DNA from: Candidatus Parcubacteria bacterium
Lineage (GTDB): Bacteria > Patescibacteriota > Minisyncoccia > Sungbacterales > SURF-37
Assembly (NCBI GenBank): GCA_003599755.1
Contig: QZJO01000011.1
Coordinates: 66,424 to 130,423, forward strand
Length of the DNA: 64,000 nt
Reading direction: 5' to 3'
Part shown: positions 3,461-63,207 of the stretch, piece after piece
Layout: each line of letters opens with the position of its first letter
Numbering within the stretch: position 1 is the stretch's first letter
The notes under the pieces: generated by a model
Databases searched by the model: none
Told to the model about the DNA's origin: nothing
Seen by the model: the letters and a program-made list of their open reading frames with translations, nothing else
Position numbers and translations under genes: made by a program

Positions 3461-3512
3461 CGCTCACCCCCTCCGGGCATGTGGAGAACTGACGAATTCT
3501 ATTATGCAATTT

Positions 3513-4037: not shown

Positions 4038-4117
4038 GGCCGCATGATAGCAGCGTGTGCCCCAAAGAAGAACCGTCCCGATGTACATCGGGACGGTTCT
4101 TCTTTGCGTTGCTGCAT

Positions 4118-4318
4118 TTAGGCCGCCGGCTGCAGATTCTGCTCGATCTGCGCGTGGGCATCCGTGAGCGTGAGCGTCATGTTCGGATGCTTGTCGGCTA
4201 CGTGCTTGTCGAGCGCGGCCTGGTCCATCGTTCCCTTCAGCTTCGCTACTGCTTCATCGCGGCTTTCCGCCTCTACGGACATCACGTCGCCGCAGGAGCA
4301 GGTCATGGAATAAGTCAT
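4118..4318 (-). CDS. DUF1059 family small protein
   Basis: MTYSMTCSCGDVMSVEAESRDEAVAKLK...HVADKHP matches the DUF1059 N-terminal Cys/Asp pattern; second copy at 42387..42608. Confidence 0.6.
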   Translation of the reverse strand: MTYSMTCSCGDVMSVEAESRDEAVAKLKGTMDQAALDKHVADKHPNMTLTLTDAHAQIEQNLQPAA

Positions 4319-4500
4319 GGGAATAGGTTCGCGAATTAAATGCCCGACCTTTTGAGTATTCGCGGCTCATTCAATACTGCCACGGAATCGTGGCGTGCGT
4401 ACAGGAATGCTGACGGTTGCGGGGCATTATCTTTTCGCGTAGTGTGGATTCCAACTTCTCGTATCTCAGGCGCAGTGCACTCACCAGGAGGAGAGAGCGG

Positions 4501-6072
4501 ATGATGGAACAGGATGCGCATGTGCAGGCCCCGGCTCGAGATGCGTTCTTTGATTGTATACGGGCGGAGCGCTTGGCGCTCACGTTCGACGACGTGCGGA
4601 TCAAGCAGGGCTGGGCGTGCGTTCCGTCCGAGGGCGATGTCATGCTCGACACGTGGTTCTCGCGGCGTGTGCCGCTGAAGAGTAACGTCATCGTCACCGC
4701 CGCAATGGATACGGTGACTGAGTCCGAGATGGCCATTGCCATGGCCAAGATCGGCGGGCTCGGTATCGTCTGGGCCATGGAAGCGGAGCGCCAGGCCGAC
4801 GAAGTTCGACGCGTGAAGTACCTGCTACAGGGCCGGCTGGACAACCCTCGTACGGTCATGCCGACGGAAACGCTCGAAGAGGTGCTCAATCGCTGTAGGC
4901 GGCGCAAAAAGCCCTGGAAGTTCCGGAGCTTTCCAGTCGTCGATGCGGAGAGCCGGCTCATCGGGCTCATCACCAAGGCACACTTCGATTTCCGGCAGAA
5001 TTGGTCCAAGCGCGTCGCCGAAGTCATGATCCCCGCCAAGGAGGTGATGGTCGCTGCGGCCGACGTCGATGGCGACACTGCCTACGAGATGATGATCCGC
5101 GAGCAGAAGAAATTTCTGCCGCTGCTGGACCGCCAGACCGGGCGGCTCGTCGGCATGTACACGCACAAGGATCTCGACGGCCTTCGATCCGAGCGCTGGC
5201 GGGCGTTCAATCTCGATGAACAAGGCCGCCTGCGCGTCGGCGCTGCCATCGGCTTGAAGGAGGACGCGCACAAGCGGATGGAGCTGCTTCACGGCTATGT
5301 GGACGTCGTAGTCGTGGATCAGATGAACGGCGCCACGTCGCTCGTCGAGGAGACGGTGCGCGAGTTGAAACTCGCCTACCCGGACGTGGATATCGTGGCC
5401 GGCAACGTAGTGCGCGGCATCCATGCCCAGCGACTCATGGATACCGGAGCTGACGGCATCAAGGTCGGCCTCGGCGGCGGCTCAATCTGCAACACGCGGG
5501 ATAAATCTGGAGCCGGCACGCCTCAGGTCTCGGCAATCGAGGATGTCGCGCGGGCCTTGCGCGGGTCTGGCGTGCCGATCATCTCTGACGGCGCCATGGT
5601 CGAATCCGGCGACGTGGCGATTGCCCTGGCCGCCGGGGCTGACTGCGTGATGTCGGGGCATATCCCGGCTGCCACGGATGAGACGCCGGGCAAGCGATGG
5701 CGGATCCGGGGCGTTCCGGTGAAAGTTTACCGCGGCATGGGTTCGAAGGAGGCCATGCGGGATAACGCCGGCAAGCGCCTGGGAGGCGTGCGCGGATATC
5801 GCATTCCGCAAGGCGTGAGTACGGTTATGATCTCTAAAGGACCGGTCGCCGACGTCATGAAGGAGGTGCTCGCCGGCGTGCGCCTGGGCATCTGGATCGC
5901 GGGCGGGCGCACTATCCCCGAGTTCCATCGGTGCGTGGACTTCGACCGCATAACCGCTGCCGGCAGGCGCGAGTCGCACCCGCACAACATCGTCGCAGTT
6001 TCGGGCGACGATGTGCATCGCCTGCTCCGGGCGTCTGACGGCGATCTTTCAACACTGCTTCGGGCCGTGTAG
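4501..6072 (+). CDS. guaB: inosine-5-prime-monophosphate dehydrogenase (IMPDH) with CBS pair
   Basis: Catalytic loop GLGGGSICNTR, IISDGAM and VTAAMDTVTE motifs; AGGAGG RBS before ATG at 4501. Confidence 0.9.
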   Translation: MMEQDAHVQAPARDAFFDCIRAERLALTFDDVRIKQGWACVPSEGDVMLDTWFSRRVPLKSNVIVTAAMDTVTESEMAIAMAKIGGLGIVWAMEAERQADEVRRVKYLLQGRLDNPRTVMPTETLEEVLNRCRRRKKPWKFRSFPVVDAESRLIGLITKAHFDFRQNWSKRVAEVMIPAKEVMVAAADVDGDTAYEMMIREQKKFLPLLDRQTGRLVGMYTHKDLDGLRSERWRAFNLDEQGRLRVGAAIGLKEDAHKRMELLHGYVDVVVVDQMNGATSLVEETVRELKLAYPDVDIVAGNVVRGIHAQRLMDTGADGIKVGLGGGSICNTRDKSGAGTPQVSAIEDVARALRGSGVPIISDGAMVESGDVAIALAAGADCVMSGHIPAATDETPGKRWRIRGVPVKVYRGMGSKEAMRDNAGKRLGGVRGYRIPQGVSTVMISKGPVADVMKEVLAGVRLGIWIAGGRTIPEFHRCVDFDRITAAGRRESHPHNIVAVSGDDVHRLLRASDGDLSTLLRAV

Positions 6073-6915: not shown

Positions 6916-8664
6916 TTAGAGCCTGATCGCCTGGTAATCGTCGAACTCGACGTCCATGAAGTCGGTGCGGATGCCGGCGTAGGCGCCTTGAGTGAACGCG
7001 CCGCCGCCGAATTGCCCGGTATCCGTGGTGTCTAAGACGAGCGTCCAGTTGCCCGTTCGCCCCACGTCGGTCCAGAGTTTCAGGTTTACGCCAGAACCGG
7101 CGTTGACCGTTTCCAGGCGCATGCCGACCCACGTGTTTTTGGGTAGGAGGTTCGGATTGGATGCGGCGTTATACGATCCGGTGAAGATTTTTTTCGACGC
7201 CATCGTGAAGTACCGGCTGCCGATTTTCTTTTTGAAGACCGCCGCCCCGTCTACGCGGAGTCCGGCGTAGTACAAGTTCTGCCCGTCGGCGTAGCGGCTG
7301 AAGAAGAGTACGCCGTTGGATGCGTTGCGGTTCGAACTCTGCGAGAGATTGTCGGCCGTGATGCGGAAGTACATCTCCTGGCGGGCGTTTTGGAACACCT
7401 GCTTGGTCAGAAGGCGGAAGATGTTTTGCGGGTGCAGGCCGTTATCGGTGTCATAGGCGTTTGCCGCCGCGTAGATTTTTTGCCATTTCGAGCCGAGCGG
7501 CAGGGCGCCTTGGATCGTTTTGCCGATGCCGTTGGCCACGGTCATGAGCGCGCCCGAGTTGACCCACCAATAGGGACTCGATGATTCGCCCATGGATCCG
7601 GTCTCTTCGATCGTCGCGTTGGTTGCCAGGCCATATCCGCTGCCTGATCCCGGACTGGCTGCCGGCGGCGGAGGCGTGGGCGTGGGTGCCGGAGCCGGCG
7701 CGGGTGCTGGCGCAAGTGCGGGCGTTGGCGTCGGCGCGGGGGCGGGTGCGGGAGCGGGGGCCGGCGCGGGCGGCGGCGTTTTGGCGAGCGTCGCGACCGC
7801 GGCGGGCGCCGCCGATTCAACGAGGAAGTCATCGAACGAGACATCCTGGAAATCGGACCAGATGCCCGACCGCCCCGTCTCATCGATGGCGCTCGAAATG
7901 TCGCGGGCCTTCAGGACTTCGCGCCATCGGCCGGTCTTGCCGTCATCTACGGAGAGCGTGAGGACGACCGCGCTGCCGTCGTTTCGCGCGTCGAGCTTTA
8001 CGCCGATCCAGCGATGCTCCGGAATCAGGTTCGCGTCGCCCTGCGCGCTGAACGTGCCCGGGAAGTGCTTCGCGTAGCCCAGGGTCTGGTAGGCGCCGTT
8101 CAGTTTCTTTTTGATCACCACGCCGCCGTCGGCTCGGATGCCGGCAACGTAGAATGTTTGGTCATCCTGGAAGCGGGACATCACGAAGATGCCGTTCCAA
8201 GGATTTCTGTTTTGGGGATTTGCAAGATTGGTCTTGTGGGAGCGGGCGTAGAAGGACGTGGCACCGTCTTGCCAGGCGTCGCGGGAAAGCAGGCGGAAGA
8301 TGTTTTGCGGATGCGTGCCGTTGTCGGAGAGGGCGGGATATACGGATGCGTAATGCTGATGCCAGGGATCGCGTGCGGGCATTTCGCCGGCAAGCGTTTT
8401 GCCGATGCCGTCGGCCATCACGAGACGGCCGCCGGATTCGAGCCACCAGTAGCGGCTTCGGGATTTCTCGGCGCTTTCAGCTTCTTCGAGCGTGCCGGCC
8501 CAGTTGAAGTTATACAGATAGGTCGACCCAGTCGTGGCTGCAGTGACGCTCGTCATGACGGCCGGGGCAGTCAACGCCGCGGAACCGATGAGCAGTGCTG
8601 CAACAGTACGGAACGGGATGCGCCGGAATTTGATATCCGGCGATCCCTCGGAATTCGCATTCAT
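6916..8664 (-). CDS. secreted protein with two tandem ~230-aa uncharacterised beta-sandwich-like domains joined by a (PA)n linker
   Basis: Signal peptide FRRIPFRTVAALLIGSAALTAPAVM; duplicated YWW(L/V)xSGG...NGIGKT...HPQNIFRLL...NRNxxNG...YYAGLRxDG...IKKK...FDD(F/Y) module; paralog of 10461..11351. Confidence 0.65.
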   Translation of the reverse strand: MNANSEGSPDIKFRRIPFRTVAALLIGSAALTAPAVMTSVTAATTGSTYLYNFNWAGTLEEAESAEKSRSRYWWLESGGRLVMADGIGKTLAGEMPARDPWHQHYASVYPALSDNGTHPQNIFRLLSRDAWQDGATSFYARSHKTNLANPQNRNPWNGIFVMSRFQDDQTFYVAGIRADGGVVIKKKLNGAYQTLGYAKHFPGTFSAQGDANLIPEHRWIGVKLDARNDGSAVVLTLSVDDGKTGRWREVLKARDISSAIDETGRSGIWSDFQDVSFDDFLVESAAPAAVATLAKTPPPAPAPAPAPAPAPTPTPALAPAPAPAPAPTPTPPPPAASPGSGSGYGLATNATIEETGSMGESSSPYWWVNSGALMTVANGIGKTIQGALPLGSKWQKIYAAANAYDTDNGLHPQNIFRLLTKQVFQNARQEMYFRITADNLSQSSNRNASNGVLFFSRYADGQNLYYAGLRVDGAAVFKKKIGSRYFTMASKKIFTGSYNAASNPNLLPKNTWVGMRLETVNAGSGVNLKLWTDVGRTGNWTLVLDTTDTGQFGGGAFTQGAYAGIRTDFMDVEFDDYQAIRL

Positions 8665-15713: not shown

Positions 15714-16547
15714 TTATGACGTGGTTGCAGGCGGAGTAGTGGTAGCAGCCGGCGGCGTTGTGGTGGCACCGGATGGCGGGGCGGGCGGAGTTGTGGTTCC
15801 GCTCGCGGGTGGAGGTGCGGGCGGCGTAGTGGTTGCCGGAGGAGGAGCGGGGGCAGGTGCCGGAGCGGGCGCTGGCGTGCCGCCAGGACGGATTACCGCG
15901 AGTGAAGCGCCATAGATGGCGATCAATCGCTGCAGCGTGATATCGTCCACCGTGCCGCTCATGACAAGGCCATGGCGTCCCTGGAAGCGTTTAATTGCGG
16001 CTTCGGTCAATGGTCCGAAATAGCCCGTGATCAGACCCTCAGGGTAGATCGCGCGATCGGTGGCAAGAGCCGACTGCAGTGCGGTGACGCCGGCTCCCCG
16101 ATCGCCTCGATCGAGATATGCGCCCGTCGCACCCGGCTGTATGGCGTTGAGTTCAGCTATGATGGAGGAAAGCTGCGTGAGGGCATGAGCGGCAAATGCC
16201 GATTTTTCTTGGGGCGTAGTCGTAGCGGAAAACCGCGCAAGTTCGGCGGTCGTGCTTGCGACAAATGCGCTCGCTCGTTCGAGAACATCCTCGCGTCGGG
16301 CGATGGTAAGCTGATTCGTGATCGTGGCGAGCCGGTTCGCGGCGGCGGTCGCGATCGCGGTGCGTTCGGCCGGAGTCGAGGTGGCGGTGATGCGGGCGAT
16401 ATCCGATTGCACGGCAGCAAGATCGAGCGCGATCTGGCCGAGCAGCGCTTCGACGTGCGAAGCCGCGGCCGGAATGGCACCGGCAAGTATGGCGGCCAGG
16501 CCGATGCCTACGGCAATACTGCGGCGAGAATGAAGAAAGTTTTTCAT
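15714..16547 (-). CDS. secreted peptidoglycan-binding (PG_binding_1) domain protein with Pro/Thr-rich C-terminal tail
   Basis: Signal peptide; GDRGAGVTALQSALA...GYFGPLTEAAIKRFQ PG-binding motif; PAPAPAPAPP/TTTPP tail. Confidence 0.65.
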   Translation of the reverse strand: MKNFLHSRRSIAVGIGLAAILAGAIPAAASHVEALLGQIALDLAAVQSDIARITATSTPAERTAIATAAANRLATITNQLTIARREDVLERASAFVASTTAELARFSATTTPQEKSAFAAHALTQLSSIIAELNAIQPGATGAYLDRGDRGAGVTALQSALATDRAIYPEGLITGYFGPLTEAAIKRFQGRHGLVMSGTVDDITLQRLIAIYGASLAVIRPGGTPAPAPAPAPAPPPATTTPPAPPPASGTTTPPAPPSGATTTPPAATTTPPATTS

Positions 16548-29008: not shown

Positions 29009-30148
29009 ATGCGGAGCATTGCAGCAATCGTACTGGTCCTTGCCGCGGCCGGAGGAGCGGCCTTTTTCTGGTATCGGCCTGCAGCTGCGCCGGCTGCGTC
29101 CGGAGCGCTCGATTTTACATTGACCACGCTTTCGCAAGCGGTCGCGGCCGCAGCGCCCGGCTCCGAGCTCCGCGATATTCCCGACACGGCGGCAGTTGGT
29201 GGCGGCTGGCGCATCGAGACGTCGCGCGATGGCCGCGCACTGCTCGAATCCCCCGATGAAACCCTGGTGACGCTCGATCAGAACACGGAACTGACCGTCG
29301 TCGCGCATGATGCCGACGCGCGCCGAAGCAAGTTCTCGCTGGCCGGCGGCCGCGCGTGGACGCGCGTGAAGAAACTATTCGATCAGGACGAATTGTACGA
29401 AATCCGTTCATCGAATGCCGTTGCCACGGTACGCGGCACATCATTTTCATTCGGGTATGCGGCGGGCGTGACGACGTTGTTGGTCGCCGAAGGAATCGTC
29501 GGCATTCTGGCTCTTGATCCGGAAACCGGCCAACCGCTTACGGCTTCGAGTACGCTCGTACACGCCGGCCAAAAGGCGATCGTGGATGATCGCCTGCCGC
29601 CGTCGGAGCGGATTCGCGTGGCCGCATTAACGACGGAAGATATGGAATCAGAATGGTACCGCTTCAATGATCCTGATGGTTCTCCCGCGCCCGCTCCGGC
29701 ACCGCCCCCTGCTCCCGCTCCGGCCCCCACACCGATGCCCGCTCCAGCGCCGACGCCGGAGCCATCGCCCGCGCCGGCTCCTCTCCCCGCGCCCAACCCT
29801 CCGCCGCCTCCGGCGCCGCTGGCGATTGATGCCGTTGCGCCGGATACGGTGACGTATAATCCGTCGGGCGCGAATGCCGTTCAGATCGCCGGCAGCGGCT
29901 TTTCGGGCGCGACGGCGGTTCTGGTCGGCGTCCTTGCGGTGAAATTCGAAATCAAGGATGACGGGGCCATTTGGCTGTTTGCCGATTCATCGATATCGCC
30001 CGGAACCTATGCGGTAAGCGTCCGCCGTGGCAGCGAAGAGGCCAAGCGCGATCGCGCGCTCACGATTCTGCCGCAGCCGGACCGATCCGACGAGTCCGGT
30101 GCCAATCCTAATCAGGATCCTCCGCCCGGTTCCGCGGCCACTAACTGA
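29009..30148 (+). CDS. FecR-domain protein with Pro-rich linker and C-terminal Ig-like (IPT/TIG-like) domain, N-terminal TM
   Basis: FecR-like block VKKLFDQDELYEIRSSNAVATVRGTSFSF; PAPAPAPPPAPAP linker. Confidence 0.7.
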   Translation: MRSIAAIVLVLAAAGGAAFFWYRPAAAPAASGALDFTLTTLSQAVAAAAPGSELRDIPDTAAVGGGWRIETSRDGRALLESPDETLVTLDQNTELTVVAHDADARRSKFSLAGGRAWTRVKKLFDQDELYEIRSSNAVATVRGTSFSFGYAAGVTTLLVAEGIVGILALDPETGQPLTASSTLVHAGQKAIVDDRLPPSERIRVAALTTEDMESEWYRFNDPDGSPAPAPAPPPAPAPAPTPMPAPAPTPEPSPAPAPLPAPNPPPPPAPLAIDAVAPDTVTYNPSGANAVQIAGSGFSGATAVLVGVLAVKFEIKDDGAIWLFADSSISPGTYAVSVRRGSEEAKRDRALTILPQPDRSDESGANPNQDPPPGSAATN

Positions 30149-46755: not shown

Positions 46756-46962
46756 CTCCGAAAGCGAGACGACGTTCGAACCTTAACGATCAAATTAGTC
46801 CGCGACGTTTATGAAAGCATACGCGAGTTCGGTCTCGCGCTCAATCTGCCGAAGTTCGCTTTTGTTCCGGGTCGACGTGACGACGCCTCGCGGTGGCGTC
46901 CCTCTCAATTTATGAATTCAGAGCAGGCCGCCAAGTGGGAGAAACCGGCCGCATGAGGCCGG
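46756..46962 (+). repeat. 207-bp direct repeat, copy 1 (about 97% identical to copy 2)
   Basis: ctccgaaagcgagacgacgttcgaacc...gagaaaccggccgcatgaggccgg repeated at 48864..49070; contains several short hairpins. Confidence 0.85.
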
Positions 46963-47067
46963 GTCGCATGGCTCTTGACGAGATAACATATAAGTGCTTT
47001 TGTTATTTGGCTCCTCCCAATCAGCTCTTCTCGATCACTTGATAAATCGCGCATTCAGGAGGGGCTC

Positions 47068-47319
47068 GTGTCAGCTCATAACGAGAGACAGCTAGACTCA
47101 GAGTCGCATCATGACCTTCACATGAAGTTGGTCGCGGCTATCCAGGAGGCGCAAGAGGAAGCTTCCCGCGCGTGGGAAAAATGGGAGGCTGAACTCCGTG
47201 ATTGGCACCTCGAGAATCCTGGGAGGCGCACGCGGCGTGGTGTGCATGGGAGGCGGAGATGGAAACGGAAAGGAGGAGGGGATGATGCAAATCAGCATCT
47301 ACCAACATCACGGAGGTGA
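47068..47319 (+). CDS. hypothetical small helical protein (GTG start)
   Basis: AGGAGGGG RBS before GTG 47068; overlaps the next gene by 38 nt in a different frame. Confidence 0.35.
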   Translation: MSAHNERQLDSESHHDLHMKLVAAIQEAQEEASRAWEKWEAELRDWHLENPGRRTRRGVHGRRRWKRKGGGDDANQHLPTSRR

Positions 47320-47641
47320 CTTCAAGGTCGCCTGGACCGACGGCGATGGAGGAGAGCGCCACTTCATGTACGATCTGGGCGGGGCCATCAGCTTTGCCCT
47401 CGGACTGAAGATCGGCGCGCTCGCGCGAGGCGAGGAGGCCGAACTCATCGTCAACGTCCGACATCCGGCGATGAATCGGGGCTTCCGCGACGGATTCCTG
47501 ATGGGTCGTGGCGACCCAACCGGACAGGAGTGGCTGTTTGCCGGCGGTTATACTGCCGATAGACGCTCTCCGCCGGACGATGGACGCTACGCAGCTCATC
47601 TGCCGTTCATGCGCGAGCGACTGGCGGAGTTCCTCCGCTAG
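47282..47641 (+). CDS. hypothetical protein (119 aa)
   Basis: AAAGGAGGAGGGG RBS before ATGATG 47282; no family match. Confidence 0.45.
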   Translation: MMQISIYQHHGGDFKVAWTDGDGGERHFMYDLGGAISFALGLKIGALARGEEAELIVNVRHPAMNRGFRDGFLMGRGDPTGQEWLFAGGYTADRRSPPDDGRYAAHLPFMRERLAEFLR

Positions 47642-47777
47642 CACTCGGGTCACTTCACCGGACCTTACTCGGTGGACGCGACGATTGGCTGCGCAATGCC
47701 GATCATCACAGGCACCGATGCATAGAGAGCATCGGGCCTTTTGTTTTCGCTCAATCGGTGATGTACGGCATAACTAA

Positions 47778-48608
47778 TTAGATACCGAGCAGCTGAACGA
47801 TGACGCTTGGCTTCCAGACCTGCCCTAAATTTGATAGTTCGCTTAACTCCTCATCTTGGACCCGACCAGAGTATATACCCATGAATTTCGTTCGCGGTGG
47901 TACACCAAGCTGGAAACCCTCTGACGAATGAATGAGACCCGATCTATATGCGATCACAGGAGAACCCGACATACCTTTTTTTGTTGACGCGTCAATTAGA
48001 AAGATTGGCCTCTTCGCATAGTCGATATCGATATCCGAGGCGACGTGACCCGTCTTCCAAATTGGAAATTTACCAAAAGCCGATTGATTGTACGGGAATC
48101 CGATTATTGAAACGGGATCCGATGGCAAGATTATAAGATCTGTATTCGCAAGGGTGATATCCAGTGGGTGCACATCGATATCGTTCGTGACCTCGATCGG
48201 TAGAGCGATGACATCTGCTTTTCCATCTGCCGTGTCTATCTCCTTCCACGTGAGTTTGCCATTTCCATCTTGTAGGGAAACATCCTTCGGAATCCATTTA
48301 CCGAGCAAGTCTTTTCGGTGATGCCAGATTCGAATCGTGTTAGGTATTGCAGCTAGCCCCGAAAGTGGATTATCTGTTTTAGGATCTCGTCCAGATACGA
48401 CATGCCAGTTCGTTATCAAGAAATGCTCTCCATCTCTGGCAACAATAAATCCGGTACCGGAGCCCAGTTGTTGGGCATTAAAAAAGATTTCCAGATGGAG
48501 CGAAATTGCCGTAAGGGGATGCACGATTGGCATAGTTGTTTCTCGAAGATATTGCGGCCAGGACATGGCCTGAGTCATCGTTATGTTCGAACCTCTAATT
48601 CTTCGCAT
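47778..48608 (-). CDS. trypsin-like (S1/chymotrypsin-fold) serine peptidase
   Basis: GSGTGFIV...HFLITNWHVV (His), D, and TKKGMSGSPV (Ser) catalytic triad context; about 48% GC vs about 65% flanks; start 48608/48578/48533 uncertain. Confidence 0.7.
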   Translation of the reverse strand: MRRIRGSNITMTQAMSWPQYLRETTMPIVHPLTAISLHLEIFFNAQQLGSGTGFIVARDGEHFLITNWHVVSGRDPKTDNPLSGLAAIPNTIRIWHHRKDLLGKWIPKDVSLQDGNGKLTWKEIDTADGKADVIALPIEVTNDIDVHPLDITLANTDLIILPSDPVSIIGFPYNQSAFGKFPIWKTGHVASDIDIDYAKRPIFLIDASTKKGMSGSPVIAYRSGLIHSSEGFQLGVPPRTKFMGIYSGRVQDEELSELSNLGQVWKPSVIVQLLGI

Positions 48609-48863
48609 CAAACCGATTCAATTTTGAACTTTTGGCCTTCCATTTTTGACAATGCTCGGGCGGCAGGATCCCGGCGCTCTGCGCCTAGAACCGTCGCGGC
48701 ACGCGCACTGCATGCGCTAACGCCGCTCTTTGAAACCTTGCGGTTTCAATACTTCCACCACGGGGAAACTCCCGTTTCCCCGACCTCCCTTCTCTGGTTC
48801 GAATCCTACGCGCCTCGTGCATCAAAATCAAAACCCCTCGCAAGGAGAGGTTTTGATTTCGAA

Positions 48864-49070
48864 CTCCGAAAGCGAGACGACGTTCGAACCTTAACGATCA
48901 AATTAGTCCGCGACGTTTATGAAAGCATACGCGAGTTCGGTCTCGCGCTCAATCTGCCGACGTTCGCTTTTGTTCCGGGTCGCCGTGACGACGCCTCGCG
49001 GTGGCGTCCTTCTCACATTATGAATTCGGAGCAGGCCGCCAAGTGGGAGAAACCGGCCGCATGAGGCCGG
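48864..49070 (+). repeat. 207-bp direct repeat, copy 2
   Basis: See copy 1; the two copies bracket the 1.9-kb protease cassette. Confidence 0.85.
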
Positions 49071-49120
49071 TCCGCGTTCGAGCGTTTCATGGTAGAAGCT
49101 AGATAACGAATCAGCAGTAG

Positions 49121-51004
49121 CTATTCGCCCATCTCTCCGAGGAAGCGGGATCTCTCCTTTCCAACGATCCTTCCACCATGCCGATGCGTTTCTCTGCCTG
49201 TTCGCTGAGAGGCCCATGACATCAGTAACGACTGTTTCGAGCGGGTAACCGAGACGAAGAAAAGGCGCCGGCGCTCCTCGATGTTCGGCATCTCCCCCGG
49301 CATGAGATCGTCCTCCAGCGCGGGAATAAAAACGATTGGCGCCTCGAGGCCTTTGGCGCTGTGCATGGTAAGAATCCGTACCTTATCCGGGAGTTCCGCA
49401 TCCTTTCCCTCGAGCTTGCCAGCTTCTCGCTCCTGCTCGAAATTCTGCAGGAGCTCGCTTAGTTTCATCACATTCTCCTTCCCCGCCTGCCTTGCAAAGT
49501 ATTCCTGTGCGATCCCTATTCCCTTATCATCAGCGCATTGTGGTGCATCTCGGATAATGGTCGGGATGATTGTTTCGAAATTCCTTTCAGCAGCACGTTC
49601 GGACATCTTCCGATGAAATTCTCCTACGAGACGTCGGTGCCGAATATCGGGATAGCGACTGGGGTCCTTTGCGACATTTTGAGTTGCCGCCCAAAGTGAC
49701 TGCCCGTTTGCCTGAGCCAGATCACGAAGATGTTTAATGGTCTCTGCCCCAATGCCATCGTGCGCGCCAAGACATTGGCGTGCAGCCAGATTATCTGACT
49801 GATCAGCCAGGAGTCCGAGTACCGCGAGGAGTTGAGCGAAACATTCAGAGTCGAATGGACCAGCTATTCTCAATTGAACATCGGTCGGAATATTGGCTAC
49901 CCGAAGCGCTGAGATGTAATCATCCGCAACTCCACCATCGCCAAAGAGAATCATCATCTCACGGTACTGAGCGCCACGTTCGTGAAGTTCCTCGACCTTA
50001 GCGACCAGCCATTGGATTTCTGCTTTTTTGCTTCGCAACCAGAAGGTTGCGACTGTGCCCCCATTCTGCGCGGCAACAAGGTTGGCCTTTCCTGGAATTC
50101 TTATCCTGTTGTTGCGAATCAAGGCATTTGCTTTATCGATTATGGCGGACGGGCAGCGATGGCATTTTGTTAGAAGGAGCGTCGTGGTGCCAGCGACGCG
50201 GTCGTGGAAATCAACCAGTCCATTGGGTCGAGCGAAGCGCTGGGTCTCATAGATGCTTTGGTCCTCATCGCCCACTACACAAAGACCACGAGGGTTACCT
50301 ATCAGAAGACGTACCAGCTCTTGATCGCTATGATTCAGGTCCTGGTATTCATCGACGAGTAGATAATGAATCCTCGCCTGCTCTCTTTCGCGAATGTTGG
50401 GATGGGCTTCAAAGATGCGCAACACAGCGTGAACAACTCGAAACCAATCGACACCACCATAGAATCCCTGAATCGCCTCGTACGCTTCGGTGAACCTATG
50501 ATAGGTCTCCGTTGCTTGGGGGCTCCTGCGAATCCAGTTCGGGATACCAGCGCCGCTCAATTCGGCCCTGTACGCGTTTAGATATGTTTTTATATTGCCC
50601 TGTCCTCTGAAAGGCAGTCGTAGACCGATCGCATTTAGATCGACCATCACATCTTGGATAAGGATTCTTGTTTCATGCTCACTTAAGGGTCGAACCGTTT
50701 GTTTCATTCCAACTAGGTCAGCGTGCTGTTTTAGAATCCCCATCGCTTTCGAGTGAAGCGTCCGGACATCAGGCATTCGATCCGGAGCGATGCCCTCGCG
50801 TTCGAGACGCTGCCGCATCTCTTTCGCCGCCGCACGCGTAAACGTCACCGCGAGCATCGTTTTTGGATCAATTTTGTCCTTAGTGAGCAGATCAACTATT
50901 CGAGCGACCAGACACATGGTCTTTCCAGTTCCAGGACCAGCAACAACGCGGAGAGGGCTATCCCTGTGATCCACGACTTGCTGCTGCTCGTCGCTCAGAT
51001 TCAT
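49121..51004 (-). CDS. UvrD/PcrA-like superfamily-1 DNA helicase (627 aa, lower GC)
   Basis: Motif I AGPGTGKT, motif II LLVDEYQD, motif V TMHSAKGLE, motif VI VSVTRSK. Confidence 0.8.
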   Translation of the reverse strand: MNLSDEQQQVVDHRDSPLRVVAGPGTGKTMCLVARIVDLLTKDKIDPKTMLAVTFTRAAAKEMRQRLEREGIAPDRMPDVRTLHSKAMGILKQHADLVGMKQTVRPLSEHETRILIQDVMVDLNAIGLRLPFRGQGNIKTYLNAYRAELSGAGIPNWIRRSPQATETYHRFTEAYEAIQGFYGGVDWFRVVHAVLRIFEAHPNIREREQARIHYLLVDEYQDLNHSDQELVRLLIGNPRGLCVVGDEDQSIYETQRFARPNGLVDFHDRVAGTTTLLLTKCHRCPSAIIDKANALIRNNRIRIPGKANLVAAQNGGTVATFWLRSKKAEIQWLVAKVEELHERGAQYREMMILFGDGGVADDYISALRVANIPTDVQLRIAGPFDSECFAQLLAVLGLLADQSDNLAARQCLGAHDGIGAETIKHLRDLAQANGQSLWAATQNVAKDPSRYPDIRHRRLVGEFHRKMSERAAERNFETIIPTIIRDAPQCADDKGIGIAQEYFARQAGKENVMKLSELLQNFEQEREAGKLEGKDAELPDKVRILTMHSAKGLEAPIVFIPALEDDLMPGEMPNIEERRRLFFVSVTRSKQSLLMSWASQRTGRETHRHGGRIVGKERSRFLGEMGE

Positions 51005-51209
51005 AATCCCGGATATGTTCGAACTTTTCTTTGAGAGGTCATGCGATTACTTTAAAACGTTGTTGTTTCTGGGTGTTTAGGACATAACCTCTCCGGAGTA
51101 TCGCCGCCTCAGAAACCGGCCTACTTCGGCCGGTTTCTCCGTCTAGTCGCCATCCTGCGGGGTCGTAAAGTGAGCACAGGTTCGATCAGAACTGCCGGCT
51201 CCTTGCGAA

Positions 51210-51401: not shown

Positions 51402-51514
51402 CTAGATAACTGCGGGGACGTCGGCGAGAGGATCGAACCGTGGGGATGAGTCCAGGTTCGAATCCCACGCCTGGGTGAGGTTGAAACGCGCGCATTTATG
51501 CGCAAAATGACCGA

Positions 51515-51586
51515 CTCCGGCGGCAGGATTCGAACCTGCGACCATCTCGTTAACAGCGAGCCGCTCTACCACTGAGCTACGCCGGA
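51515..51586 (-). tRNA. tRNA-Asn (anticodon GUU)
   Basis: Cloverleaf readable on minus strand: acceptor TCCGGCG/CGCCGGA, D-arm GCTC-AGTGGTA-GAGC, anticodon stem-loop GCTCG-CTGTTAA-CGAGA, T-arm GCAGG-TTCGAAT-CCTGC; CCA not encoded. Confidence 0.7.
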
Positions 51587-51589
51587 ATA
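51569..51589. repeat. 21-bp direct repeat ccactgagctacgccggaata (copy A, overlaps tRNA 5-prime end)
   Basis: Identical 21-mer recurs at about 51871..51891, bracketing the GIY-YIG ORF. Confidence 0.6.
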
Positions 51590-51825
51590 AGGTTATGCTT
51601 TCGAATGTACTTTCTGCCTGCTGCACTCTTCAGATATCGCTCACGTTCTCGCGCTTCCTCAATCGTATTGCATTCTTCTGTATATATCACTTTCCACGGA
51701 GCATACCGGCTAGAGAAGGTTCCTTGCCCATTATTATGCTCATGAAGTCTGCGGTCTAGATCCGTAGTGCTGCCGGTATATGTCTTTTTCGCCGTTTTAC
51801 TTTTGAGGATGTACACTATCGCCAT
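51577..51825 (-). CDS. GIY-YIG nuclease family small protein
   Basis: IVYILKSKTAKKTYTGSTTDLDRRLHEHNNG...WKVIYTEECNTIEEARERERYLK; 3-prime end overlaps the tRNA-Asn 5-prime end. Confidence 0.65.
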   Translation of the reverse strand: MAIVYILKSKTAKKTYTGSTTDLDRRLHEHNNGQGTFSSRYAPWKVIYTEECNTIEEARERERYLKSAAGRKYIRKHNLIPA

Positions 51826-51870
51826 ACCGCTCTACCCGCCTCGCGTCGACTCGCCGCGAGTCGAGGCGGG

Positions 51871-51891
51871 CCACTGAGCTACGCCGGAATA
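51871..51891. repeat. 21-bp direct repeat copy B (tRNA-Asn 5-prime fragment) preceded by a GC hairpin
   Basis: ccactgagctacgccggaata preceded by gtcgactcgccgcgagtcgag palindrome; approximate coordinates. Confidence 0.55.
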
Positions 51892-57057: not shown

Positions 57058-57318
57058 TCAGCTGGCGCGCCGCTTGAACAAATAGTCCTTCAGCCGACGC
57101 TTCAGCAGTCTGCGACCGTGCGTTGTTTTGAGATGTTTCTCTCTGCGGCGCGCATCGGAGCCTTCGAGCATGGCCTCGTAGTAGATGCAGCGCCACTGGC
57201 TTCTCTTGGTGGAGAAATTCTTCCCGCTGTTGTGTTCGGCGAGTCGCTTTCGGAGATCAACGGTATATCCGATGTAATGCTCTCCGCTTGGGTTCTCGAG
57301 AACGTAGACGTAGAACAC
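57058..57318 (-). CDS. GIY-YIG nuclease family small protein (GTG start proposed)
   Basis: FYVYVLENPSGEHYIGYTVDLRKRLAEHNSG...WRCIYYEA...RRREKHLK; placed 11 nt downstream of the signal-peptidase gene stop. Confidence 0.55.
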   Translation of the reverse strand: MFYVYVLENPSGEHYIGYTVDLRKRLAEHNSGKNFSTKRSQWRCIYYEAMLEGSDARRREKHLKTTHGRRLLKRRLKDYLFKRRAS

Positions 57319-58525: not shown

Positions 58526-60211
58526 TTAGTTTTCGGGATATGCAGAAGATTCTGCCGGCTCGGTATCAACTTCGGTGATGTCATTCGTGCGAGCCGCCTC
58601 GGCTTCGCCATCCCACCAGTTGTCCTCGGCATTCACGTCTGCGCCGCCGGATACGGACGGACCGTACCAATTGACATTGTTCCCAAGACCTGCGGGAGCA
58701 AAGTTGTTGGTATTTACGGTCAGGACGCCGTTGTTACTCGTCCCATTCGCAGCGGCCGGAGCTACGCCGACGGCCTCAAGAACGTTGCTTTCGAAATCAT
58801 TGTGGTGAATCGAGGAAGCATCCGGGCCGTCGTTCGCCACGCCCACGTCATTGTTCAGGATGTCGTTGAACGCCACTTCATAATTTGAAGCGGTGTTGAA
58901 GAACATGGCCTGGCGCCAACCATCAAAGACATTGTGAAGAATGTCGATGTTGGTCGCGACAGGCGTTGATCCGGAACCGATCTCAGTAATCACAGCCTTT
59001 GCGTCAGCGCCCTTGGCACCCCCCGGAGCCGTGAACAGGTTGTGGCTGATTACGGTGTTATCAAGCGACGAGTTGCTGCCTTGTCCGGTTTCGTTGTGGA
59101 TGTAGATCGCGGCATTCGCGCTTGCTTGGATGAAGCTGTAGTTGGTGAATTCAAGGCCGGTGATAGTCACGTTATCAGCGTCGATGAACATGCCGCCGGG
59201 GATGTTTGCATCACCAGCCGCTCCAAGCCCCGCAATCGTCACGCTCTCATCGACGTTGATGGGGAAGGTATCGGTGCCGTTGTACGTGGAATCAACACAG
59301 ATTGTCGCTCCGGGAGCGGCTGCATCAATGGCGGCCTGTAGAGATTCGCTACCCGATACCGTATCAGTGCAATCAGCCGGATCATCATAGGAAGCGACTG
59401 CAGCCCCTACGAGGGGGCGTACTTCTTCGCTGACATCCGACACTTCGACCCAGAGGTCGCAGCCGAAGATTTTGTGTTCGTTCGCGATCGGCTGGGTGAA
59501 GGCATCGGCATCGATCGTGGAGCTCGCGCTCACACGCTCGACGAATTCCTGCCAGTCCTGGGCGCAATAGTTGCCAAAGCAAGGTACTGCAAGATCGATA
59601 ACCCAGTTGTCGACAGTATCACCGGGGAGCTCATCCTCGGTGTCCACATCCGATTTTGCCAAGCGGCCGAACGTGTCGAGATATTGAACAGTCGAGGTTG
59701 GACCGTTGGTGTCAACCCAGAATGGAATGTGGAACGAATTGGTATTGCCGTCGTTCTCATCCGGTCCGTGTTTCGAGATGTATTCGCAGAGCGACGGAAG
59801 GACGCCCCATGTTTCGCCCGTGGTAAGCTGCCGTGGAGCCTCGCCACAATCAACGCTGTAAGAGCCATCTTGGTTCGCCACGAGATGACCGGTTGTTGCG
59901 AGCGGCTCGTCCATCAGAACGGTGCCATTTTCGGCCGTGATCGCGCATTTTGGCTTCTGGCGGATGAAGTATGCGACGTCATCCACGCGACCCTCTTCCA
60001 AAAACGAGTTGGAAAGTTGAACGGTCAGCGGCTGATCCAGATGCTCCTGCGGAAAGACCGTGCCGAAGTCGATCCACTCGGTACCTACGGAAAGCGCATT
60101 CTCGATTTTTGCCGTCACGTTGACCACGTGCGCCTCGAACGCCGCGAAGAGCGGCAAGAGCGCGACCGCGGTTCCCGCGACAACGATCCCCAATGCTAGT
60201 TTCTTTTTCAT
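58526..60211 (-). CDS. secreted protein: SipW-cognate-like signal plus conserved N-domain plus right-handed beta-helix-like C-terminal region
   Basis: MKKKLALGIVVAGTAVALLPLFAAFEAHVVNVTAKIENAL; C-terminal NxxIxxN parallel beta-helix-type repeats. Confidence 0.65.
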   Translation of the reverse strand: MKKKLALGIVVAGTAVALLPLFAAFEAHVVNVTAKIENALSVGTEWIDFGTVFPQEHLDQPLTVQLSNSFLEEGRVDDVAYFIRQKPKCAITAENGTVLMDEPLATTGHLVANQDGSYSVDCGEAPRQLTTGETWGVLPSLCEYISKHGPDENDGNTNSFHIPFWVDTNGPTSTVQYLDTFGRLAKSDVDTEDELPGDTVDNWVIDLAVPCFGNYCAQDWQEFVERVSASSTIDADAFTQPIANEHKIFGCDLWVEVSDVSEEVRPLVGAAVASYDDPADCTDTVSGSESLQAAIDAAAPGATICVDSTYNGTDTFPINVDESVTIAGLGAAGDANIPGGMFIDADNVTITGLEFTNYSFIQASANAAIYIHNETGQGSNSSLDNTVISHNLFTAPGGAKGADAKAVITEIGSGSTPVATNIDILHNVFDGWRQAMFFNTASNYEVAFNDILNNDVGVANDGPDASSIHHNDFESNVLEAVGVAPAAANGTSNNGVLTVNTNNFAPAGLGNNVNWYGPSVSGGADVNAEDNWWDGEAEAARTNDITEVDTEPAESSAYPEN

Positions 60212-60374
60212 TTGTTTGGTTTGAATTAGTTCTGCTCGACTCGACCTTTTGTACGTTCCCCTTTGCAGCAACCGCTGTATCAGAGCATTTCGGATACAGG
60301 AGTTGCTGCAGGGTTTTTGGCCTTCCGGCCAAAGCATAGTCCCCGCTTCCGCAGGAACTATGTTTGGGCGCAAG

Positions 60375-61655
60375 TTACTCCACCGGCTCCACGCACTCCT
60401 TGCTGTTGTAGCTCAGCTTGTAGAGGAGTCCCGCGGGGTTGGTTTCGGGCGTGCCGCCGGGCATCCCCTCGTTCGTGACCTCAATTTTTAGCGTATTGAG
60501 GCCGGGTGCGAGGTTCGTGACCGCGTACGCATCCTGCGTGGCGGCTTGGAAGTTGTTCGGGTTGACCAATTCTTGGCCGACGAGGATGTCGTTTACGAAC
60601 GCGCGGTACGTATTGTCGGTCGCGATGTTGAGAAACGCGCTCGTCACCGTGCCGCTGACCGTGAACGTCCGCTCGAACGTGAACGTCTCGGTGAGGGTCG
60701 GGTTATCAACCGGGTCGCTTTCCCAGATCCAGGACGCGAACGGAATACTTGCCGTCCATGCCGGATGGATTGAGGTCACGAGCTCGGCCGGCGCGTCGCC
60801 GTTTTCGGCGACCGTGGTATTCGTGTCGCTGCCGATCTGCGTGAGCGTTTCTTCGCCGAGCGCGCAGCTGACTTCGGATACTTCGACCCAAAGATCGCAG
60901 CCGAAGATTTTGTGCTCGTTTTCTTTTGGCTGGGTGTACTCGTCGGCGTTGATCGTCGAGCTGCCGCTGACGGCGGCCACGAAGTCGGCCCAGTCCTGGG
61001 CGCAGAATCCGCCGAAGCACGGCACGGCCAGGTCAATGATCCAGTTGTCTACGGTGTCGCCGTCGATCTCGTCTTCCAGATCAGTGTCGGATTTGGCGAG
61101 GCGGCCGTGCGTGTCGTTCCACGCGATGCCAAACGGCGTCTCGGCGCCGTCACCGACAATCGTCCACGGCTGGTGGAACGACGTGAGGGTCTCGTCGTTT
61201 TCATCCGGCCCTTCTTTGGAGATGTATTCGCATAGCGACGGCAACATGCCCCAGCTTTCGCCCTCAACGAGCGCGCGGGGCGCGGGGCCGCAGTCCACGG
61301 TTACCTCGCCCTCCTGATCGAGCACCAAGTGGCCGGTCGCGGCGAGCGGCTCGTCCACCAGAACGGTGCCGTTCTCGCGCGTGATGGCGCATTTGGGTTT
61401 TTGGCGGAGGAAATATTCAACGTCGTCCACGCGATCTTCGTCGAGGAATGATTGCGACAAGGCAACGCGCAGCGGCTGGTCCAGGTGCTCCTGCGGAAAG
61501 ACCGTGCCGAAGTCGATCCAGTCGGTGCTTACCTGGAGGGCATTTTCGATTTTTGCCGTCACGTTGACCACGTGCGCCTCGAACGCCGCAAACAGCGGCA
61601 AAAGCGCGATGGCGAGACCGACGGCGGCAATTCCGATGCCGATTCGTTTAGTCAT
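60375..61655 (-). CDS. secreted protein: SipW-cognate-like signal plus conserved N-domain plus C-terminal beta-sandwich
   Basis: MTKRIGIGIAAVGLAIALLPLFAAFEAHVVNVTAKIENAL; N-domain about 70% identical to the 58526 paralog. Confidence 0.65.
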   Translation of the reverse strand: MTKRIGIGIAAVGLAIALLPLFAAFEAHVVNVTAKIENALQVSTDWIDFGTVFPQEHLDQPLRVALSQSFLDEDRVDDVEYFLRQKPKCAITRENGTVLVDEPLAATGHLVLDQEGEVTVDCGPAPRALVEGESWGMLPSLCEYISKEGPDENDETLTSFHQPWTIVGDGAETPFGIAWNDTHGRLAKSDTDLEDEIDGDTVDNWIIDLAVPCFGGFCAQDWADFVAAVSGSSTINADEYTQPKENEHKIFGCDLWVEVSEVSCALGEETLTQIGSDTNTTVAENGDAPAELVTSIHPAWTASIPFASWIWESDPVDNPTLTETFTFERTFTVSGTVTSAFLNIATDNTYRAFVNDILVGQELVNPNNFQAATQDAYAVTNLAPGLNTLKIEVTNEGMPGGTPETNPAGLLYKLSYNSKECVEPVE

Positions 61656-61755
61656 GCGTCTGATTGCCGAACCGTTCCCCGAGTCCGGAAAGTCACGCGA
61701 GTGAAGCGATAACCCCAAACCCCGCGGATTGCGGGGTTTGGGGGAGTTTCAGCGA

Positions 61756-63207
61756 TTACTCTTCGCAAACCGTAAGTTCGACCAAGATCGATTCAAGGTC
61801 ATCGAAATCGCTTGCGAGGAAGTATTGGCTCGGAGCATCGGCAATCTCATTCATGAGGAATGCCTCGGTGGTCGATGTGACGCCGATCCCGATGGCGAAT
61901 ACGTCGATACCGGCAGCGCGCGCCGCATCAGCTGCAGCCGCTGCGTCTATCGCGCCTTGCGCTTCGTCCGGCTGATTGGGCGCACCGTCCGAGATAACGA
62001 CCATGACGTCCTGCACCGATGGCCGCTCATGGGCATGCGCGTTATCGAGTTCGGCAATGGCAAGCGTGATGCCGGCTTCCATATCCGTGGTCCCGCCGCT
62101 TACCAAGCCATTGATAGCGGCCTGAATGGTCGCTTTGACGTCCGTGAGGTGCGAATCCAATGTTGCGCCACTGGAGAAACTCGTCTGGCCGATATGGTTC
62201 TCATTACCCGATGCCGAAGGCATGAGCGCATCAACGAACGCGAGCAATCCCGTCTTTACGGTGTTCATGTCCGTCCCGCCGATGCTGCCGGAGCGATCAA
62301 CCACAAGCATGAGGTCGATCTCTTCTTCGCAGCCAAGACCCGGCAAGCTGATGTTGAATACTTCGAACCAAAGATCGCAGCCGAAGATCTTGTGCTGATT
62401 CTCGATCGGCTGGGTCCAGTCGTCGGCATTCTCCTGCTCGTTCGCGTTATGCGTGCCGACGAATGTCGCCCAGTCCTGGGCGCAGAATCCGCCGAAGCAC
62501 GGCACGGCCAAGTCGATCAGCCAGTTATCCTCGAAGTCCTGGACGCTTTTGGCCAGGCGGCCCTGGGCTTCCAGCCAGGAGATGCTTTCACCGTTTACGG
62601 TAAACGGCGCGTGGAATGCGTCTACATCGTCATCGTTCTCCTGCTCGGTGCCGTCTTCCGTGTCTTCGTGCTTCGAAAGATACGGGCAGAGCATGGGCAG
62701 TACGCCCCAGGTCTCTTCCGGAACGGTTTGAAGCTCGCGGGGCGCGGGGCCGCAATCTACGTAGTAGCCGTCGAATTGAGTTACGCCTTCGAATGTATCG
62801 CCGGGATCCAACGGCAGCGGATCAGCTACGTCATTCGGATCATACGCGCCGGGGAATACGTGGCCGGTCCGAGTATACAGATGCGTGCCATCTTCGCCCG
62901 TGGCGGCGTCGAATTCCGTGCCGTCATTCCAGGTGATGGCGCATTTGGGCTTTTGGCGGATTACGTACTCCACGTCGTCCACCCGGTCTTCATCTTGGAA
63001 CGATTGCGACAGGGCGATGGGGATGTTCTTTACGAGATACTCCTGCGGGAAGACGGTGCCGAAGTCCAAGGGATTTACGGGAACCGTCAAAGCGTTTTCG
63101 ATCTTGGCCGTGACGTTGACCACGTGTGCCTCGAACGCCGCGAACAGCGGCAGAAGGGCAACGGTGGCGCCGGCAACGGCAAGACCGAATAGAACCTTTC
63201 TTTTCAT
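61756..63207 (-). CDS. secreted protein: SipW-cognate-like signal plus conserved N-domain plus C-terminal von Willebrand factor A (MIDAS) domain
   Basis: MKRKVLFGLAVAGATVALLPLFAAFEAHVVNVTAKIENAL; LMLVVDRSGSIGG...TDMEAGI...VVISDGAPN VWA motifs. Confidence 0.7.
   Translation of the reverse strand: MKRKVLFGLAVAGATVALLPLFAAFEAHVVNVTAKIENALTVPVNPLDFGTVFPQEYLVKNIPIALSQSFQDEDRVDDVEYVIRQKPKCAITWNDGTEFDAATGEDGTHLYTRTGHVFPGAYDPNDVADPLPLDPGDTFEGVTQFDGYYVDCGPAPRELQTVPEETWGVLPMLCPYLSKHEDTEDGTEQENDDDVDAFHAPFTVNGESISWLEAQGRLAKSVQDFEDNWLIDLAVPCFGGFCAQDWATFVGTHNANEQENADDWTQPIENQHKIFGCDLWFEVFNISLPGLGCEEEIDLMLVVDRSGSIGGTDMNTVKTGLLAFVDALMPSASGNENHIGQTSFSSGATLDSHLTDVKATIQAAINGLVSGGTTDMEAGITLAIAELDNAHAHERPSVQDVMVVISDGAPNQPDEAQGAIDAAAAADAARAAGIDVFAIGIGVTSTTEAFLMNEIADAPSQYFLASDFDDLESILVELTVCEE

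Follow-up and report, generated by a model that had tools for sequence, protein, structure and literature searches.

The window, by which we mean the whole analysed stretch of 64,000 nucleotides from a Candidatus Parcubacteria contig, carries a gene for a trypsin-like serine protease that is convergent with two small open reading frames, orf83 and orf119, across an intergenic gap of 136 nt (ORF map; Table 1). The ORF map reproduces the positions given in an earlier note on this DNA, the orientation of the protease frame relative to the plus-strand pair, and the 38 nt by which the 83-aa and 119-aa frames overlap in different reading frames. AGGAGG-type motifs, as read from the sequence, do precede both small frames. 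Farther out lie the copies of a repeat, a helicase gene and a tRNA gene.

Table 1. Features of the locus, in window coordinates
Feature	Position	Strand	Basis or remark
R1, first copy of the 212-nt direct repeat	46756-46967		96% identical to 48864-49075
orf83	47068-47319	+	open frame, GTG start, AGGAGG motif 5 nt upstream
orf119 (NCBI RJQ36438.1)	47282-47641	+	homologues, codon usage, model
Terminator-like hairpin with T-run	47715-47735	+	between the convergent orf119 and protease genes
Trypsin-like serine protease, 251 aa	47778-48533	-	Pfam, alignment, AlphaFold model
Protease open frame, extended upstream	47778-48611	-	TTG at 48611, 277 aa
17-mer resembling the tRNA-Asn 3' end	48655-48671	+	2 mismatches
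Terminator-like hairpin	48834-48847	-	between helicase and protease
R2, second copy of the 212-nt direct repeat	48864-49075		pairs with R1
UvrD-family helicase, 627 aa (NCBI RJQ36440.1)	49121-51004	-	GajB-like, no GajA partner
R3, diverged inverted partial copy of R	51115-51174		71-73% identity
tRNA-Asn(GTT)	51513-51587	-	edge of low-GC variable region

The two small open reading frames

Homologues, conserved motifs and codon usage show that orf119 encodes a genuine small protein, cytoplasmic and of a rare family. This family comprises eight clusters among 1.84 billion representatives, and orf119 has no match in Pfam, PHROG, PDB or BFVD. Its codon-usage score of 0.18 vs. a host mean of 0.19 is host-like, and its AlphaFold model reaches a pLDDT of 86. 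The likely start is at 47285, and the conserved start of the family falls on the protein's own Met. In all likelihood it is a native gene of its Parcubacteria host. An antisense ORF of 171 aa (47138-47653, minus strand) was considered as a real gene and rejected, as it is not conserved in L011, one of the contigs with an orf119 homologue.

The earlier note had taken both small frames for genes, which holds for orf119, with its homologues and codon usage, and not for orf83. The latter is probably a chance open frame in the leader region of orf119. In 5.8 billion proteins no homologue of orf83 was found, and orf83 itself was also absent; furthermore, it is missing from both the JGI and the NCBI gene calls. 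Its codon-usage score (-0.142) is close to the null mean for out-of-frame ORFs (-0.145). Upstream of the orf119 homologues no conserved leader was found, and the orf83 region is not conserved there. The AGGAGG motif occurs 38 times in the window, with a start codon 4-10 nt downstream at 20 of the 38 sites, and because it is so frequent near start codons, such a ribosome-binding motif is weak evidence for a gene.

The protease and its predicted location

The protease matches the Pfam family Trypsin_2, of the clan PA serine peptidases, with 45.7 bits (cut-off 27.6). The catalytic residues His44 (TNWH), Asp107 (DV.A) and Ser189 (GMSGSP) follow in this order, and are invariant in 38 aligned sequences. 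A chymotrypsin-type two-barrel fold is predicted by the AlphaFold model (pLDDT 92.9, pTM 0.91), for which the best Foldseek matches are DegS, DegP, HtrA1, SplB and V8 (E about 2e-8), at an identity of only 12-21%. The model thus shares the chymotrypsin double barrel and the His-Asp-Ser triad with HtrA/DegS/DegP (S1C) and with the staphylococcal Spl/V8 proteases (S1B). Unlike these, the window protease has neither a PDZ domain, nor a signal peptide, nor a membrane anchor, and it carries a conserved, family-specific Trp-rich insertion at about residues 50-105. The protease domain is the sole domain detected in the 251-aa protein.

Homologues indicate Met27 (48533) as the likely start, giving the 251-aa protein, while the alternative gene models yield 276 aa (NCBI), 266 aa (JGI) or 277 aa (longest open frame). 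At none of these candidate N-termini did a Kyte-Doolittle scan find a hydrophobic stretch resembling a signal peptide; the 12-residue mean peaks at 1.63, on a conserved β-strand of the core. The N-termini of the family are also short, with at most 17 residues ahead of a conserved IDPLS motif in the 38-sequence alignment. Hydropathy scan and family N-termini therefore agree with the claim that the protease lacks a signal peptide at every candidate start. As far as sequence and model can tell, the enzyme is a cytoplasmic trypsin-like protease with an intact triad.

The composition of the gene is foreign to its host, with a GC content of 46% vs. about 60% and a codon-usage score of 0.002 vs. the host mean of 0.19, which points to horizontal acquisition.

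Family distribution and a possible role in conflict

The earlier note proposed that the protease and the small frames may form a toxin/sensor module. Spelled out, such a model makes the protease the toxic or effector component and gives orf119, alone or together with orf83, the part of inhibitor, antitoxin or sensor, the two small frames being regulated through translational coupling or frameshifting. We consider this very improbable. The small frames do adjoin the protease, orf119 is a real protein, and all lie in the same cassette, a 2.1-kb segment bounded by the 212-nt repeats, so that a lineage-specific link between orf119 and the protease may exist. In the P0122 contig, which carries the closest orf119 homologue (73% identity), a convergent gene likewise lies at comparable spacing. 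Against this, neither small frame was found at any of about 90 loci of protease homologues. A tblastn search of 105 loci for the small frames as conserved partners matched only the window contig and the orf119 loci without protease. On two independent contigs of the latter kind, L011 and L094, the orf119 homologues adjoin unrelated genes, and a metagenome scan with the orf119 alignment gave no further contexts. The protease family outnumbers the orf119 family more than 100-fold, and the two genes are unlike in both GC content and codon usage. Their convergent layout, with a terminator-like hairpin in between, makes no operon, and neither this arrangement nor the co-occurrence (0 of about 90 protease loci, two orf119 loci without a protease) is that of a type II toxin-antitoxin pair. 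For orf83, both coding signal and homologues are lacking.

Frameshift regulation of the small pair has nothing in its favour. A fusion of orf83 and orf119 would need a +1 shift, for which no recognised site was seen on reading the sequence. It would also remove the conserved first β-strand, since the orf119 family begins at its own Met. Given the missing co-occurrence, the partnership of toxin and orf119 is largely refuted. The locus holds three unrelated things, a solo protease, orf119 and the chance frame orf83, rather than a three-gene module, and we regard a solo acquired protease outside any module as highly probable.

The protease belongs to a family of at least 1138 clusters with an extremely patchy distribution: a pattern-limited scan of 185,579 species genomes found relatives in at least 209 of them. 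The 80 retained loci span many bacterial phyla, CPR lineages and Bathyarchaeota, and their relatives share at most 57% identity with the window protease. Family members are always encoded by a single gene and are free-standing, with no fusion partner; the aligned ones (n = 38) measure 228-266 aa and the listed matches 226-285 aa. No neighbour family was found in more than three of 150 immediate neighbours of homologues, these three being near-identical conjugative elements, and the 80 genome loci show no conserved synteny.

Integrases, defence genes, prophages and conjugative elements recur loosely near the homologues. In 12 of the 80 loci, for example, a tyrosine or serine recombinase is encoded no more than 4 kb away. 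DpdF, restriction-modification genes, TIR, AbiGi and components of MADS are among the defence-type neighbours, and the closest homologue of the protease has Abi_alpha and a PHP-SMC ATPase beside it. A minority of loci have integrases or defence genes nearby, and the apparent enrichment in defence islands, judged from raw counts, is modest.

Many homologues are flanked by housekeeping genes, such as those for ribosomal proteins, tRNA synthetases and DnaX. These ribosomal, tRNA-synthetase and replication contexts would suit an ordinary cytoplasmic enzyme with a housekeeping or regulatory task, HtrA-like without PDZ and with no role in conflict, as would the nearest folds (DegS, DegP, HtrA) and a relative kept in a Nealsonbacteria genome of 0.64 Mb. 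Nevertheless, we find such a role unlikely. The patchy occurrence across many phyla, at no more than 57% identity, argues against it, as do the lack of conserved synteny, the foreign composition at this locus, the integrases, conjugative elements and prophages near many loci, and the absence of a match to any NCBIfam housekeeping model. Overall, the family has the look of an accessory gene of the conflict type, not of a secreted housekeeping protease. The earlier note had named a Sec signal peptide together with a conserved housekeeping context as the finding that would speak against its idea; both were looked for, and neither is present.

An accessory gene could also benefit its carrier, a phage or mobile element, through superinfection exclusion, counter-defence or processing of the element's proteins, for instance, and not serve the defence of the host. 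The protease aligns over its full length to phrog_7688 (7.9e-36), ten relatives are found in IMG/VR viral contigs, one relative in Shigella phage SfII has the lysis genes on one side and a gene for an HNH endonuclease on the other, and others are carried by Lachnospiraceae conjugative elements. However, the ten viral loci stand against hundreds of cellular ones and are all distant (28-37% identity), and no phage or element genes adjoin the protease in the window. We therefore judge service to the carrier quite unlikely, noting that superinfection exclusion overlaps with the explanation that we prefer and does not contradict it.

This preferred explanation, an acquired solo protease with a role in a conflict system and with unrelated neighbours, we hold as a whole to be somewhat more probable than its alternatives together. 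It draws on matches to the defence catalogues. The protease matches PDC-S45, which PADLOC lists as a phage-defence candidate (E 5.5e-22, 76 bits), best over profile positions 152-245 of 293, and all 38 aligned family members match this model weakly (best 2e-27). A Sinorhizobium prophage protein, by comparison, matches PDC-S45 at about 1e-94 (PMC12429752), so that the window protease is better seen as part of a diverged sister group than as a core member. It resembles PDC-S45 and phrog_7688, both candidate catalogue entries, in being a single gene with a cytoplasmic trypsin-like domain that occurs in prophages and islands, and differs from PDC-S45 by its divergence. In the searchable literature we found no experimental report on the protease family or PDC-S45, including on protection against phages.

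The trypsin-like domains of LmuA and of the RT-protease DRTs (RT-Protease_XI) in the PADLOC models match the protease as well, albeit weakly. In Trypsin-MBL modules, HamA, Avs or LmuA carries the protease as a fused domain, and an upstream MBL-fold nuclease is activated through cleavage by the protease (PMC12799240; 10.1101/2025.09.03.673762). The window protease shares with these modules of Hachiman, AVAST, Lamassu and DRT an intracellular Trypsin_2-type protease and a conflict context. In contrast to them, it is a free-standing protein of 251 aa with no fusion to HamA, Avs or LmuA. No gene for an MBL-fold nuclease is present among the called genes of the locus, and the MBL family is absent from the 25 Pfam families listed for the 150 immediate neighbours of homologues, a list that contains every family matched by at least two members and in which no family exceeds three.

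If the protease acts in conflict, it would do so as a self-contained enzyme, most probably against phages or in abortive infection. It might be held inactive until a cue of infection allows it to cleave proteins of the host or the phage, and the conserved Trp-rich insertion would be the likeliest regulatory or sensing part. An anti-phage or abortive-infection function specifically remains a tentative assignment, possible though somewhat short of an even chance. Of the idea that the protease is an abortive-infection effector, the part that stands is the one suggested by the accessory, conflict-type family and the PDC-S45 matches, whereas the toxin/sensor module with the small frames falls away.

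Protease-based immunity is a current topic, but the characterised cases combine a sensor-fused protease with a pro-nuclease. The free-standing cytoplasmic trypsin-like proteases, with at least 1138 clusters and with members in CPR bacteria and archaea as well, appear in the catalogues only as a defence candidate. The locus itself raises no new question. What it adds is a divergent member from the CPR and a clear-cut negative finding, namely a protease family without an obligate partner gene. Such a family would have to function on its own or through host factors, which makes it a cheap single-gene target for testing.

Repeats, helicase and tRNA-Asn

The UvrD-family helicase matches the GajB models over its full length (1.6e-71), and the models for PcrA, Rep and UvrD give it roughly equal scores. 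Its GC content (53%) and codon usage are both atypical. Unlike in Gabija, the GajB-like helicase is not accompanied by the OLD-family ATPase-nuclease GajA: no ORF for an OLD ATPase-TOPRIM protein lies beside it, and upstream only the diverged repeat, a 63-aa ORF and the tRNA-Asn are found.

The protease and the helicase could be thought of as a two-gene defence system, by analogy with Hachiman, which includes helicase-linked trypsin-like proteases (PMC12799240; bioRxiv 10.1101/2025.09.03.673762). The two genes are adjacent, lie on the same strand and are both of atypical composition. However, only 2 of the 80 loci have a UvrD-like gene within 6 kb, and one of these two genes is part of a complete Gabija-like pair. 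Between the two genes of the window are about 590 nt (49120 down to 48534) with R2 and a minus-strand terminator-like hairpin, and this hairpin argues for separate transcription units. Furthermore, an MBL nuclease is missing, and the GC contents of protease and helicase differ. A joint system of the two is highly improbable. In the preferred explanation, the protease would instead have arrived together with the orphan helicase in a hotspot beside tRNA-Asn, in a cassette bounded by the 212-nt repeats.

This direct repeat, which brackets the orf119-protease cassette, had been overlooked in the earlier note. R1 and R2 have sharp boundaries at both ends, and R1 ends in a hairpin (GGAGAAACCGGCC-loop-GGCCGG). 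R3 is an inverted copy of the last ~60 nt of R, hairpin included. No exact match to the repeat was found in viral or metagenome contigs, nor any blastn match in plasmids and phages. A structured RNA was considered and rejected, with no Rfam match to E = 1 and folding z-scores of 0.46 and -0.67.

The direct repeat around orf119 and the protease, together with the inverted copy beyond the helicase, could be read as an undescribed integrase-less cassette system beside tRNA-Asn in a CPR genome that stacks single foreign genes in succession, here the protease and the helicase, with the solo protease as a one-protein abortive-infection system that senses through its Trp-rich insertion. We regard this combined reading as improbable. 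No integrase was detected by Pfam among the called genes, or in the window by ad hoc HMMs of limited sensitivity for tyrosine and serine recombinases.

ARAGORN calls only the tRNA-Asn as a tRNA. Fragments with GGTTCGAATCC in them at about 48797 and 51458 were inspected as tRNA-like and rejected, as by inspection they form no T-arms. The 17-mer that resembles the 3' end of the tRNA-Asn lies 2.86 kb from this gene, with 0.58 such matches expected per window at up to three mismatches, and is possibly an att remnant.

The protease and its family

The trypsin-like protease of this locus fits best into the PDC-S45/phrog_7688 solo-protease group, as a diverged member. Its Pfam Trypsin_2 score exceeds the gathering threshold, and at least 1138 relatives were found among 5.8 billion proteins. 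Nearly all of these are 245-260 aa long and align to about 89% of the query; the predicted start is accordingly at Met27 (48533), giving a protein of 251 aa. An alignment of 38 family sequences has invariant His44, Asp107 and Ser189, with N-termini at most 17 residues ahead of a conserved IDPLS motif. The earlier note saw no signal peptide and this holds, as no hydrophobic signal-like segment was found at any candidate start. AlphaFold gives a confident model (pLDDT 92.9, pTM 0.91), which in the PDB resembles most closely the protease domains of DegS, DegP, DegQ, HtrA1 and staphylococcal Spl/V8 (12-21% identity). A PDB sequence search gave marginal matches only. Together, the triad, the lack of a signal segment and the structural matches of the model indicate a cytoplasmic, PDZ-less, trypsin-like protease, predicted to be active.

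All 38 aligned family members weakly match PDC-S45, a PADLOC phage-defence candidate (best 2e-27, window protein 5.5e-22), and they match the trypsin domains of the PADLOC models LmuA and RT-Protease_XI more weakly still. The PHROG family phrog_7688 aligns with the window protease over its full length (7.9e-36). A distant relative, 29% identical over the C-terminal two thirds, occurs in Shigella phage SfII (L095, NC_021857.1 40429-41049). It is annotated as hypothetical protein SfII_57; the lysis cassette and an HNH endonuclease gene lie on either side, and an IS911 copy is adjacent.

In the searchable literature we found no experimental test of PDC-S45; the sole paper naming it merely lists it in Sinorhizobium prophages (PMC12429752). 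The studied defence-associated Trypsin_2 proteases are fused to HamA, Avs1a or LmuA, and they cleave, and thereby activate, an adjacent MBL-fold pro-nuclease (PMC12799240; bioRxiv 10.1101/2025.09.03.673762). The window protease, in contrast, has neither a sensor fusion nor an adjacent MBL-fold pro-nuclease, and is not a member of such a trypsin-MBL module. Its mode of action may still be similar, with a latent enzyme inside the cell that would be released upon infection. Such a cytoplasmic protease is a plausible candidate for a conflict-system gene.

Protease neighbourhoods

The protease gene and its flanks were collected from 80 species genomes, 10 viral contigs and about a dozen metagenome contigs. 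ORFs within 4 kb of the protease were clustered all-against-all, and no family was common to more than eight loci. The largest clusters were tyrosine recombinases (eight loci) and serine recombinases (four loci), followed by three near-identical Lachnospiraceae conjugative elements. Likewise, no family had more than three members when the 150 immediate neighbours were compared with Pfam and PADLOC. A minority of loci have defence-type neighbours, such as DpdF, restriction-modification genes, TIR, AbiGi and MADS components. A defence-island-like setting surrounds the closest homologue (55% identity; L106, Logan ERR10503156 contig, 387-5399), where an 881-aa PHP plus SMC/AAA_21 ATPase is followed by a 152-aa ORF, an Abi_alpha protein and then the protease. 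Other homologues have ribosomal, tRNA-synthetase or DnaX genes on both sides. The mixed contexts and the lack of a recurrent neighbour indicate a solo gene in variable surroundings.

The proposal of a toxin/sensor module with the two small ORFs is not supported by these loci: with tblastn, orf83, orf119 and the 212-nt R repeat were found only in the window's own contig. The earlier observation is partly confirmed.

The two small ORFs

The source of the window is a "Candidatus Parcubacteria bacterium" genome assembled from metagenome data (proteins NCBI RJQ36435-36442; RJQ36435 = C4552_04060, RJQ36438 = C4552_04075, RJQ36441 = C4552_04090). ORF calls bear out the layout described in the earlier note, with a 38-nt overlap of the small ORFs in different frames and a protease convergent to both. 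A gap of 136 nt, containing a terminator-like hairpin, separates orf119 from the protease.

Features of the locus, in window positions
Feature	Position	Strand	Remarks
R1, direct repeat, 212 nt	46756-46967		96% identical to R2; sharp ends
orf83	47068-47319	+	ORF call; 83 aa
orf119	47282-47641	+	ORF call; 119 aa
Protease open frame	47778-48611	-	277 codons; convergent with both small ORFs
R2, direct repeat, 212 nt	48864-49075		96% identical to R1; sharp ends
UvrD-family helicase	49121-51004	-	627 aa; between R2 and R3
R3	51115-51174		diverged inverted copy of the last ~60 nt of R, including its hairpin; beyond the helicase
tRNA-Asn	51513-51587

The strong ribosome-binding support claimed for both ORFs stands in so far as AGGAGG precedes each of them, but this motif with a start codon is common in the window (20 of 38 AGGAGG sites). 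Furthermore, orf83 has no homologue in the protein collection searched, where its own sequence is also absent, and neither JGI nor NCBI calls it. Its codon-usage log-odds (-0.142) is close to the mean of out-of-frame ORFs (-0.145; host gene mean 0.19), and its GC3 is 0.54 versus 0.69-0.78 in the measured neighbouring host genes. Taken together, orf83 is probably not a gene.

In contrast, orf119 is a real gene. It has a codon score of 0.18, relatives in only eight clusters (one of them spurious) out of 1.84 billion representatives, the conserved motifs YQH..GDFKV.W, DLGGAISFALGLK and P..NRGF, and a confident predicted model (pLDDT 86). No match was found in Pfam, PHROG, PDB or BFVD. One homologue is in another Parcubacteria MAG, where the locus retrieved contains no protease gene and no genes are called for 0.7-1.2 kb to either side of it; after a third homologue comes a cold-shock-like gene. 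The upstream sequences show no conservation among these homologues, and orf83 is absent from them. In the MAG locus (L011), the tRNA-Lys 3' end (5121-5139) has a perfect 19-nt duplicate 92 nt downstream (5213-5231).

The GC content of orf119 (62%) is near that of the host (~60%), whereas GC is 46% in the protease, whose codon score is 0.002. This contrast points to a native small gene next to a foreign protease, which counts against a co-evolved pair.

Repeats, helicase and tRNA surroundings

R1 and R2 bracket orf83, orf119 and the protease. The repeat carries a hairpin, GGAGAAACCGGCC-loop-GGCCGG, within its last ~60 nt, and this motif has only three sites in the 64-kb window, those in R1, R2 and R3 (0.02 expected by chance). 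R has no Rfam match and an ordinary folding energy, and no copies were found elsewhere in the viral, metagenome, plasmid and phage collections scanned. An assembly accident is unlikely, because several positions differ between R1 and R2 and because a JGI contig (L013) shares 20,360 nt with the window at 100% identity, repeats included.

The helicase, separated from the protease by a terminator-like hairpin, aligns with GajB models from end to end (1.6e-71), and no GajA partner was found. Its scores against PcrA, Rep and UvrD models are about equal, and its GC (53%) and codon usage (score 0.048) are atypical of the host. It may be a defence-type helicase left as an orphan, or a PcrA-like gene that was acquired. 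The 17-mer CTCGGGCGGCAGGATCC (48655-48671), a short way upstream of the protease, resembles the tRNA-Asn 3' end CTCCGGCGGCAGGATTC (51515-51531) with two mismatches and could represent a decayed att site at the border of the helicase segment. No integrase was detected among the called genes or by a recombinase profile search of the window. In our reading, foreign single genes have accumulated in this region, a hotspot next to the tRNA.

An 82-aa GIY-YIG ORF (51577-51825, -) overlaps the tRNA-Asn 5' end, and a perfect 21-nt duplication of that end flanks the ORF (51569-51589, 51871-51891). As we read the sequence, the distal copy belongs to a 28-nt fragment of the tRNA 5' end that a ~36-nt palindrome (~51838-51870) interrupts. 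The arrangement resembles a footprint left by a mobile GIY-YIG insertion. Another small GIY-YIG gene (86 aa, ~57058-57318, -; JGI calls, L013) adjoins a Peptidase_S24 (LexA-like) gene, so the genome has several GIY-YIG copies. Three tandem paralogues of 615, 447 and 483 aa lie at 58526-63207 (-), with DNA repeats 70-84% identical at a spacing of 1438-1552 nt. The first has a weak NosD-like model match, and related short segments occur in large genes at 53686 and 56708. GC-rich Gly/Ala-type low-complexity repeats (7664-7776, 15813-15888, 29671-29817) are common to three distant ORFs on both strands.
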